From: a virus
Taxonomy: Duplodnaviria > Caudoviricetes
Strand: one strand, 5' to 3'
Virus record (IMG/VR): IMGVR_UViG_3300032236_000109
Span: 1,016-65,015 of that record
Length of the DNA stretch: 64,000 bases
Shown: in pieces, positions 39,512-52,367 of the stretch
Numbering within the stretch: the stretch's first letter is position 1
How the letters are laid out: each line of letters starts with the position of its first letter
Made by a program: the position numbers and the translations under genes
Notes under the pieces: model-generated
What the model saw: only the letters and a program-made list of their open reading frames with translations
Told to the model about the DNA's origin: nothing
Database searches by the model: none

Positions 39512-39741
39512 TTCTCTTGTGCCTTTCTTAGTATTGCTTTAGCAAAACCCAATAGTTCTAAATCATCAGGATAAACATTGCCTGACTCTTTGCTTTTCCA
39601 AGCGCCATTTTCAACAGCTAAAGAGTATATTTCCTCATCTGTTAGTGTCTTTGCTGGACTATATGTAGTTTCACATGAATGTCCTGCGCCATTTTCCATT
39701 TTCATCTCTTCTCCGCAAAAACAACAAGTCATCTTTATCAT
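39508..39741 (-). CDS. Mosaic small protein (Zn-finger plus modules C+D)
   Basis: CCFC..HSC; KTLTDEEI; AKAILRKAQEK. Confidence 0.65.
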   Translation of the reverse strand: MIKMTCCFCGEEMKMENGAGHSCETTYSPAKTLTDEEIYSLAVENGAWKSKESGNVYPDDLELLGFAKAILRKAQEK

Positions 39742-42126: not shown

Positions 42127-42312
42127 CGGTCTATTCCGGACGCTTGAAACTTACACCAGCGGAATAGGTCTCAGCGCTACTGGGGGTTTAGTAGATGGAA
42201 CAGCGCAATATCGGTGGCGAAGCTAGAGCCGATACTACGAACGTCTGGCGGGTGCTGTGGCTCCGAACGGGTAACAGTTGAAGGCATCTAGGTAAGGCTA
42301 GGTGCGTTCACC
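42127..42312 (+). ncRNA. Multi-hairpin structured non-coding element upstream of replication genes
   Basis: CTATTCCG/CGGAATAG, GCGCT/AGCGC, TATCGG/CCGATA, GAACG/CGTTC and GCATCTAG/CTAGGTGC stems. Confidence 0.45.
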
Positions 42313-50631: not shown

Positions 50632-50981
50632 GCTGCACCCTCCTCTTGTGGGTCAAATTGCTCCAAATATTCAACATCATCAGGATGTAGGCTATCCCTG
50701 TCTAAGTCTTGAAGATCAAAAATGAATCCTTCTTCTCCGCTATAAGGCAAGGAATGCCAAACTTCTAGCGTGTCAGGTGTGCCGCTACATAGCATGGCTA
50801 CTTGATACTCGCTATTAACTAGGAAAACATAGCCCGAATTCATGTTAAAAGCTGGGCGCACTTCGTTATCCCAAAAATCGGACGGAAGCCCGCTTTCATT
50901 CCATGCGTGAAGGATCTTTTCCAGCTCTACCCGTTCACGATAGCCAAATTTACTCAAGTCCTCTGTATATGCGTTTTGCAT
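50628..50981 (-). CDS. Hypothetical early protein
   Basis: DLSKFGYRE..FNMNSGYVFL.N. Confidence 0.6.
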   Translation of the reverse strand: MQNAYTEDLSKFGYRERVELEKILHAWNESGLPSDFWDNEVRPAFNMNSGYVFLVNSEYQVAMLCSGTPDTLEVWHSLPYSGEEGFIFDLQDLDRDSLHPDDVEYLEQFDPQEEGAA

Positions 50982-50983
50982 AA

Positions 50984-51292
50984 TTAAGCCGCCTTTCTGA
51001 TTTGTACGTCATTGAATCGGACTGCATCTAAACCTCTTATAAAAGCATGCATAGCGTTAAATAACTCCCGCTTTGTTGTGTGATAGCTTATAAGTGGAGT
51101 ATTTACCCCGCCACTTGTGTTGCTCATGCGATGCAAACAAACTCCCCCGTATGCGTGGCTTATATGATAGTTGCCAATATTGGCGCAAAATTTTCCGTTT
51201 TGATCCTTAGAATATGGCTCCAATGGGCTATTAGTTAGCTCGTTCAAGTATGTTGCTAGACTGTCCAGTTGTTTATCTGTGATTCTTTGCAA
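50984..51292 (-). CDS. Hypothetical early protein
   Basis: GAGGAG RBS; TTG start. Confidence 0.6.
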   Translation of the reverse strand: MQRITDKQLDSLATYLNELTNSPLEPYSKDQNGKFCANIGNYHISHAYGGVCLHRMSNTSGGVNTPLISYHTTKRELFNAMHAFIRGLDAVRFNDVQIRKAA

Positions 51293-51311
51293 GATAATTC
51301 TCCTCGGTTTA

Positions 51312-51488
51312 TTAGTTTGTTGCGGTTTTTTGGTCGGCTGCGCTGCGCTTTTCTGCTGCCGTATTTACTTGGTTGATGATTCTAAGCCCGCCATTACTCC
51401 AGCCAATGGCTGAAGCTCTGGCATCCTTCAAAGTCTTAAAACTATGGATAGTGCCGTCTGCTGCTTTAATGGTGTATTTAATTGCCAT
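51312..51488 (-). CDS. Small early protein directly downstream of the hammerhead
   Basis: GAAGGAG RBS before MAIKYT. Confidence 0.6.
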   Translation of the reverse strand: MAIKYTIKAADGTIHSFKTLKDARASAIGWSNGGLRIINQVNTAAEKRSAADQKTATN

Positions 51489-51507
51489 AATCACTCCTTC
51501 AATTGTT

Positions 51508-51568
51508 GATCTCATCAGTAAGGGCTTAACCCTCAGACGGGATTGCTCCCGTTTCGATCTGTTAAGCG
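51508..51568 (-). ncRNA. Hammerhead ribozyme, type II, with pseudoknot
   Basis: Minus strand reads GCTTAACA GATC GAAAC GGGA GCAA TCCC GTC TGAGGG TTAAG CCCTTA CTGATGA GATC: full core, three stems, and a 5' arm able to pair with loop I. Confidence 0.93.
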
Positions 51569-51786
51569 TGTTGCAGTTGCCATACTGCTTCTGCTTCTGC
51601 TTGCTCTTTTAAAAGCCCGTCATAATGCTTAATCCAGTCTAAACAGTCAGATACGCTAGTAAGATATACGCATCCATTAGGGTGCATTAGTGCGTATGGG
51701 TTTGTAGATGGAAAATCTCTGCTAGTCTTTAAGTCAATGTAATAAGTAGCGTATTCGGTCTGAATGGTTGCGGTAAATGTTTTCAT
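51562..51786 (-). CDS. Hypothetical early protein (first gene of the operon)
   Basis: GAAGGAG RBS. Confidence 0.6.
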   Translation of the reverse strand: MKTFTATIQTEYATYYIDLKTSRDFPSTNPYALMHPNGCVYLTSVSDCLDWIKHYDGLLKEQAEAEAVWQLQHA

Positions 51787-51829
51787 GGTATAGCTCCTTC
51801 ATGGTTGTGGGTTGTGCTGCTATGTATGA

Positions 51830-51873
51830 ATTAGATCACCAGTAAATAGACAAAATCTTGACCTAGATCAAGA
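51830..51873 (-). promoter_or_regulatory. FNR/CRP-family class II promoter candidate
   Basis: TTGAC-CTAG-ATCAA (51858-51871) centred at -41.5 relative to a TCTAAT -10 (51835-51830). Confidence 0.6.
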
Positions 51874-51909
51874 AAATGACAAATAGTTTTCCACAATGTG
51901 AGAAAGTTT

Positions 51910-51934
51910 AAGAAAAGCGGGTTATTAGCCCGCC
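51910..51934 (-). terminator. Intrinsic terminator (minus strand)
   Basis: GCGGGCT-AAT-AACCCGC followed by TTTTCTT. Confidence 0.6.
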
Positions 51935-51942
51935 TTCCTTTG

Positions 51943-52098
51943 CTACTTGCTACGGATTAGGTCATGCGATCTTAGCAAGGCACAAGCAAATAACTCTTTG
52001 GCTAAGTCTGGCATCTCCTGATACTTTGGATCATCCTCAAATACTGTCGCCAGCGTGTCTAGTGCTAATTGAATCTCTTGTTCTGTGTATGTGTTCAA
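51943..52098 (-). CDS. 51-aa hypothetical protein (absent from ORF track)
   Basis: GGAG RBS; TTG start; followed by a terminator. Confidence 0.5.
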   Translation of the reverse strand: MNTYTEQEIQLALDTLATVFEDDPKYQEMPDLAKELFACALLRSHDLIRSK

Positions 52099-52367
52099 GA
52101 TGTTAATTCTCCAGTTGTTTAAGGTTGCGGTATTGCTTCCTTAACTACAAGACGATTGAAAACCCCAAAAGTCAGGGCAAGATACAAAATATTTTTTCGG
52201 CTGCCTAGGGGTTTTCTGCTGCAAAAAGTCGGGGCGCTGCCGTCATCCTGACAAATTTAAAAGCCCGCTATTTGTTCCGACTGGATAGCTTGGATCAATC
52301 TCATGTAAGGGAAGATAGAGTTCATAGAGGGAATATAAGAGGGTAAGTATCTGCCTAGAGTTAAAGC

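Follow-up and report, generated by a model that had tools for sequence, protein, structure and literature searches.

The minus strand of the DNA analysed here (64,000 nt, positions 1,016 to 65,015 of IMG/VR record IMGVR_UViG_3300032236_000109, called the window below) carries at 51561-51506 every nucleotide of the hammerhead core together with a 4-bp open stem II and 6-bp stems I and III, as read directly from the letters. With a probability of roughly 0.8, we consider this element to be a genuine type II hammerhead ribozyme of an uncultured freshwater phage, transcribed within a leftward polycistronic message of small ORFan genes and predicted to be self-cleaving.

Structure of the ribozyme

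In the RNA the elements follow one another as one stem II strand, GAAA, the stem III hairpin, UC, the stem I hairpin, CUGAUGA and the other stem II strand. Both ends of the RNA leave via stem II, and loops close stems I and III, which is the type II topology. The core nucleotides C3 U4 G5 A6 N7 G8 A9, G12 A13 A14, the pair A15.1-U16.1 and H17 are all in place, with no deviating position, and the pairs next to the core are G-C (10.1-11.1), U-A (1.1-2.1) and A-U (15.1-16.1), as in the three-helix criterion given in the available text of PMC3088659. The preliminary description of this DNA had claimed a complete core with type II stems, which this direct reading of the minus strand bears out. It had also predicted a cut between 51536 and 51535, which is where the hammerhead consensus places it, and had located the stop codon of the upstream gene inside a tail arm, where TAA at 51564-51562 indeed ends a 74-amino-acid ORF. 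Its span of 51508-51568 is in order except that 51568 lies one base past this arm, which starts at 51567. The parts of the element are the following.

51506-51561, minus strand: type II hammerhead including the flanking A51560 and A51507 (limits from covariance models)
51561-51567, minus strand: 5' tail GCUUAAC, complement of loop I and its closing pair, holding the stop codon TAA at 51562-51564 (sequence)
51560, minus strand: single A between the 5' tail and stem II (sequence)
51556-51559, minus strand: 5'-side strand of stem II, GAUC, positions 11.4-11.1 (sequence and listed pairs; three variable pairs covary in 93 relatives)
51553-51555, minus strand: core G12 A13 A14 (sequence; invariant in A1 and A3 because the search patterns demand it)
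51537-51552, minus strand: stem III hairpin, A15.1-CGGGA/UCCCG-U16.1, with a GCAA loop at 51543-51546 (pair probability 0.87-1.0; variable pairs covary)
51536, minus strand: C17 (sequence)
51535-51536, minus strand: predicted cleavage site between C17 (51536) and U1.1 (51535) (hammerhead consensus position)
51519-51535, minus strand: stem I hairpin, UGAGGG/CCCUUA, in which one pair is G.U, and the 5-nt loop UUAAG at 51525-51529 (sequence; six pairs covary)
51512-51518, minus strand: core C3 U4 G5 A6 U7 G8 A9, CUGAUGA (sequence)
51508-51511, minus strand: 3'-side strand of stem II, GAUC, positions 10.1-10.4 (sequence and listed pairs)

A large subclass of phage hammerheads

A search pattern made of the window's own stem II (GAUC), the core and GUC (pattern 1) matched at least 120 stretches of viral contigs, and 16 stretches in bacterial and archaeal contigs taken at one genome per species, all of them MAGs and belonging to many phyla. 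The 17-nt stem I hairpin, for which pattern 1 does not ask, is present in 97 of the 102 distinct cores listed. In an alignment of 98 distinct copies from which the window was left out (A1), 99.3% of the cells are paired, with 100% for the stem I cells, and nine pairs change on both sides, namely all six of stem I and three of stem III. The covariation score is 0.696 compared with 0.126 after shuffling, and none of 500 shuffles scores as high.

Since pattern 1 had fixed stem II, the stem II part of the pattern was relaxed. The relaxed pattern again matched at least 120 stretches in viral contigs; at the 104 new loci listed, 117 of 128 raw matches have stems I and III, and they amount to 112 distinct copies. 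In 101 of these 112 listed copies the length of stem II is 4 bp exactly, with A/A flanks in 82, and its sequences among the listed matches are diverse (GGUC/GACC, GGCC/GGCC, GGAC/GUCC and others). A second alignment (A3) was made of 93 copies with a stem II other than GAUC, again leaving the window out and with rows pre-filtered for pairing; it has a covariation score of 0.930 compared with 0.183 after shuffling, which none of 500 shuffles reaches, and with rows so filtered shows 11 covarying pairs, three of them in stem II. These hammerheads form a large, phage-borne subclass, with a stem II of exactly 4 bp set in A/A, a 6-bp stem I, a loop I of the form U-N-A-N-G/U, a variable stem III and GUC at the cleavage site. 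A literature search found this subclass under no name, which is weak evidence; the supplements of PMC3088659 may already contain it, as well as its class of tertiary contact.

Covariance models R1 and R2 were built from A1 and A3, respectively, and neither contains the window. R1 finds the window ribozyme with 64.7 bits (E 4.7e-18; next best 11.3 bits) and R2 with 62.7 bits (E 2.2e-15; next best 10.1 bits), scores that are partly circular at the fixed positions because the family was fetched with the window's own core. The window has A51560 and A51507 around stem II, the loop UUAAG and GUC, and thus, with its R2 score, belongs to the subclass as defined above. The covariance model search finds a single copy in the 65,015-nt genome.

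Relation to Rfam models and to known type II hammerheads

The preliminary description had proposed a search with the Rfam type II model as a check, and this search was negative. At gathering score, Rfam gives no hammerhead family in the whole window; at E<=10, it gives no hammerhead in 401 nt around the site and, in 86 nt, a sole hammerhead match, which is a partial type III of 12.1 bits. RF02276 (Hammerhead_II) run on the whole genome at E<=10 gives no match, so that its gathering cut-off of 37 bits is not reached, and 12 other loci with family members likewise have no Rfam match at gathering score. On some relatives RF02276 matches over its full length with 28.8-29.6 bits, under the cut-off. 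In the printed consensus of RF02276, stem II is 2 bp long, loop I spans about 10 nt and a 3' tail of 8 nt is conserved, in contrast with the 4-bp stem II in A/A and the 5-nt loop I found here. The Rfam result does not refute the hammerhead, because RF02276 models a subclass that is built differently.

Two Rfam matches to other RNAs came up in these searches. The only one at gathering score in the window is a full-length RF02932 (Betaproteobacteria-1 RNA) at 42129-42253 on the plus strand, with 93.2 bits for a cut-off of 49.4. At L126:1508-1581, a sub-threshold RF02980 match (freshwater-2 RNA, 25.4 bits compared with 49.9) overlaps a hammerhead of that locus together with the ribosome-binding site behind it; the resemblance, of hairpins before an A-rich leader, is possibly fortuitous.

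Apart from these differences of build, the window ribozyme shares with published type II hammerheads (Perreault et al., 2011, PMC3088659, in its available text; RF02276) the core, the circular permutation and an open stem II, as well as the habitat, phage or prophage intergenic regions beside small genes of unknown function. According to the same text, several hammerheads flank prophage genes and may process long phage transcripts, and the genes next to the prophage hammerheads are inconstant, a mosaic pattern that is also found here. The three hammerheads around ardA in Agrobacterium tumefaciens (PMC3088659, available text) are comparable in lying between cistrons, with a proposed role in cutting into shorter mRNAs, but the genome analysed here has one copy, some relatives having 2-8 copies within a few kb. 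Arrays with one ribozyme per gene junction occur in the phage contigs L168 (eight copies in about 4 kb), L154 and L183 (four each) and L040 and L120 (three each). In Desulfovibrio vulgaris, three type II hammerheads cleave in vivo, as reported from cyPhyRNA-seq in the available part of PMC8782182. Likened by description, they have in common with the window ribozyme the type II topology, a neighbourhood of phage-derived genes and the product ends, which are predicted here; the evidence is in vivo in their case and from sequence in ours.

The motif is unlikely to be fortuitous or decayed

The bare core pattern, with no demand on stems, matches twice in the window, compared with 0.21 matches expected from dinucleotide shuffles. 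The second match (39563-39612) lacks a stem I and is due to chance. Folded without constraints, 51600-51470 has precisely the hammerhead with its three stems as its minimum free energy structure (-30.9 kcal/mol), and a 76-nt stretch folds with z = -2.66. We hardly credit the idea that the element is a chance motif, or a decayed one that has lost cleavage. The lack of an Rfam hit would fit such a motif, as would the outcome of a search for RNA runs, which listed none for this DNA, and the absence of the element from the related locus L001; nevertheless, the core is intact at all positions, and the family features that the search patterns did not demand are all present (the A/A around stem II, the U and A of loop I, the 6-bp stem I with its 5-nt loop and the other stem lengths). 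The distance between the 62.7 bits of R2 and its next best match also argues against such a motif, as do metagenome contigs from three runs of one study, in which the ribozyme is covered with no listed difference. A genuine ribozyme is thus the reading we retain.

Complementarity between the 5' tail and loop I

The preliminary description had further proposed that the 5' tail GCUUAAC can form a pseudoknot with loop I, and that a terminating ribosome could modulate cleavage. Spelled out as a model, the pseudoknot would hold stems I and II parallel, and a ribosome terminating within the arm would melt it and thereby tune cleavage. The complementarity itself is real. Over its seven nucleotides the tail is fully Watson-Crick complementary to G-UUAAG-C (loop I with its closing pair), with a duplex energy of -6.7 kcal/mol, and among the 113 GAUC-type members listed a 7-nt run represents 0.09% of non-self loop/tail pairs and occurs once in the data, in the window itself. 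A role for such a pairing is not without precedent: in type II hammerheads the tertiary contact described in print is a pseudoknot that loop I forms with the tail beyond stem II, and its mutation drops the rate more than 100-fold (PMC3088659, available text). Furthermore, the 5' and 3' tails exit stem II at the same end, and six or more complementary bases are found in 4 of the 113 listed members for about 1.2% expected.

The comparison with relatives nevertheless makes a functional pseudoknot improbable. In the 113 GAUC-type members listed, the longest run between loop I and the 5' tail is distributed as in non-self pairs, with means no different from permutations. Over 221 listed members with a 4-bp stem II, the mean run between the 5' tail and loop I is 2.83 compared with 2.85 in permuted pairs (134 of 200 permutations are as high), and that between the 3' tail and loop I is 2.63 compared with 2.73, with no excess. 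In the published form (PMC3088659, available text), it is the 3' tail that pairs with a loop I of about 10 nt, whereas here neither tail exceeds permuted pairs in the 221 listed members; because the loop is only 5 nt long, a pseudoknot would have to use all of it and also the G-C pair that closes stem I. A pseudoknot of the published type (loop I joined by at least four pairs to the nucleotides that directly follow stem II on its 3' side) was looked for in the window, where the best run is 3. Among 35 other distinct ribozymes with the identical loop G-UUAAG-C, none has the 7-nt tail complement, and their best 5'-tail runs are 2 (11 members), 3 (16 members), 4 (7 members) and 5 (1 member). Metagenome contigs from three runs of one study, which cover 51347 or 51394 to 51564 with no other letter listed inside the ribozyme, diverge at 51564, inside the arm, so that as derived from the letters of their loose ends only UAAC, four of the seven bases, is kept. 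Finally, the ribozyme of locus L002 has two compensatory changes in stem I, and its loop finds three to four complementary tail bases at most. Being absent or at the permuted level in the family comparisons, in the contigs and in L002, the complement of tail and loop is real but idiosyncratic, and as a functional pseudoknot it looks fortuitous.

The same seven nucleotides could also act in the opposite way, as an alternative helix that excludes stem I, an inactive trap that ribosomes on the last codons of gene 1 would open, licensing cleavage. The energies leave room for it: with the tail helix forced the fold reaches -30.4 kcal/mol compared with -30.9 kcal/mol for the hammerhead, the ensemble probability is 0.58 for the tail helix and 0.42 for stem I, and the tail helix is the minimum free energy structure of a 141-nt stretch. 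These nearest-neighbour energies leave out tertiary contacts and co-transcriptional order, and although the tail emerges first, local closing of stem I is possible as soon as it has been transcribed. In addition, a ribosome halted on the stop codon would mask the 5'-side strand of stem II as well, and the relatives do not keep the complement (the 221 listed members, the 35 same-loop members and the contigs). We regard a trap of this kind as very improbable.

Conserved nucleotides and a putative tertiary contact

In the 221 listed members, stem II is preceded by A(-1) in 96% and followed by A(+1) in 84%, and loop I has U as its first base in 97%, A as its third in 75% and G or U as its last in 91%. 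This conservation suggests that the tertiary contact that speeds natural hammerheads is here most likely made by the U (and A) of loop I with the conserved A residues closing stem II, and is probably not the 7-nt pairing of tail and loop. In this subclass the loop I uridine and the adenines past the outer end of the 4-bp stem II are thus near-invariant, and in hammerheads of types I and III (sTRSV, Schistosoma) a reverse Hoogsteen loop-loop pair is conserved according to the available text of PMC6155905. The arrangement found here would match a conserved U-A contact of this reverse Hoogsteen kind, with the difference that 'loop II' is open in our case, the adenines being the first unpaired bases of the two tails, and that the contact is proposed from conservation alone.

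Genomic context

Two small genes of a leftward unit flank the ribozyme, with the following features around it.

51562-51786, minus strand: upstream gene of 74 amino acids, no PHROG family, stop ending 2 nt before stem II (ORF list, PHROG search)
51312-51488, minus strand: downstream gene of 58 amino acids, no PHROG family, Shine-Dalgarno AAGGAG at 51494-51499, ATG 19 nt after stem II
51823-51933, minus strand: terminator-like hairpin (51917-51933) with TTTTCTT, then a promoter-like block of about 85 nt before the 74-amino-acid gene

The G+C-rich hairpin at 51917-51933 directly follows a 51-amino-acid ORF (51943-52098) and looks like an intrinsic terminator between two leftward units. The block of about 85 nt (51823-51905, minus strand) is near-identical at L001:1760-1848, with unrelated flanks on both sides, and contigs from four metagenome runs cover it; it behaves like a portable regulatory module placed before a swappable first gene. 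Because the terminator-like hairpin and the conserved promoter-like block precede it, the 74-amino-acid gene is plausibly the first of its unit. The preliminary description had the ribozyme split the first two genes of an early operon. Its position between the 74- and 58-amino-acid ORFs agrees with this, but 'early' is an inference only, drawn from small ORFan genes divergent from the packaging genes: the two ORFs are part of a leftward run of small ORFs, about 5 kb in length, that diverges from terS, terL and portal, and a PHROG search gave no family for seven genes of the leftward unit.

The placement of the ribozyme between cistrons, where the upstream stop precedes stem II by 2 nt and the next start codon follows it by 19 nt, is that of the subclass. 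Of 205 listed members, 161 have an upstream stop (of an ORF of at least 40 codons) at -6 to +5 nt relative to stem II, and 135 have a start codon 12-35 nt downstream.

The genes on either side are not constant. The 74-amino-acid protein has six homologues, 57-81% identical, and single-protein and alignment searches found no relatives of it in viral contigs. Its invariant C-terminal peptide, whose coding stretch includes the tail, is shared by five full-length homologues: the last 13 residues are identical in all five (P0001-P0007 set), for an overall identity down to 57%. These last 13 codons (51565-51603, minus strand) also include a predicted hairpin at 51573-51588, and the invariant stretch may reflect a constraint at the RNA level, or on recombination, beside the ribozyme. 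At L002 the ribozyme precedes a homologous 58-amino-acid gene and has an unrelated ORF upstream, while at L001 the homologue of the 58-amino-acid gene has no ribozyme upstream; L131-L134, which encode relatives of this protein, were found to have no ribozyme either. A blastn search of 50900-52200 against the phage collection gave no match. One metagenome contig joins 51564 to 51822 via 469 other letters, which replace 257 of the 74-amino-acid gene, and other metagenome contigs share with the window only 55-59 nt of ribozyme. The edges of the ribozyme thus coincide with mosaic junctions, with a cassette exchange across 51564-51822.

Proposed mechanism and coupling to translation

We propose that the RNA would cut itself after C17 (51536). 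The stem III hairpin, bearing a 2',3'-cyclic phosphate, would then terminate the message of gene 1, and the downstream message would open on the stem I hairpin, with a 5'-OH at its end, about 47 nt before the start codon of gene 2, so that the second gene would gain a defined leader. Engineered insulators of the RiboJ type work in a comparable manner, a hammerhead placed before the ribosome-binding site removing the upstream RNA and giving a leader with a fixed hairpin start. RiboJ was engineered from a type III satellite-RNA hammerhead, and its likeness to the window ribozyme is one of function only. Once cut, the products would separate because only the 4-bp stem II still holds them, and the stability and translation of gene 1 would therefore be uncoupled from the genes behind. 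A 2',3'-cyclic phosphate and a 5'-OH are the ends reported for type II cleavage products (PMC8782182, available part), and cutting of this kind fits the published idea that phage hammerheads cut long transcripts to gene-length mRNAs (PMC3088659, available text). A point against this reading is that the 58-amino-acid homologue in L001 does without the ribozyme.

The abutment of stop codon and stem II could reflect mere tight packing of phage genes. It could also have consequences for folding. Where the stop codon is 2 nt away from stem II, a terminating ribosome should occlude the 5'-side strand of this helix along with part of the core, and for this reason translation could gate folding by position. 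Modulation of cleavage by a terminating ribosome, as suggested in the preliminary description, is therefore plausible through the stop codon abutting stem II, a position common to most of the 205 listed members, but not through the pseudoknot. Extended to the whole subclass, the abutting stop would be a coupling device in which the ribosome covers the 5'-side strand of stem II and G12-A14, so that cutting takes place only in gaps between ribosomes, the 7-nt complement of tail and loop in the window adding a second, lineage-specific layer. In this complete form we hold the proposal to be unlikely. If it were true, strong translation of an upstream message would keep it joined to its downstream genes, and weak translation would let it be cut off from them.

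Significance

The hammerhead described here joins an already known kind, as phage hammerheads have been known since 2011, and a single copy adds little by itself; the role of phage hammerheads is still called an open question in the available text of PMC6155905. The wider point concerns the subclass. The Rfam type II model misses a very abundant and sharply defined phage subclass, with a 4-bp stem II in A/A, a 5-nt loop I and no signal of a Watson-Crick pseudoknot, and phage annotation pipelines that rely on Rfam will for that reason overlook it. The near-fixed register of these ribozymes between a stop codon and the next ribosome-binding site leads to the testable idea that they define the boundaries of cistrons, possibly in a manner linked to translation.
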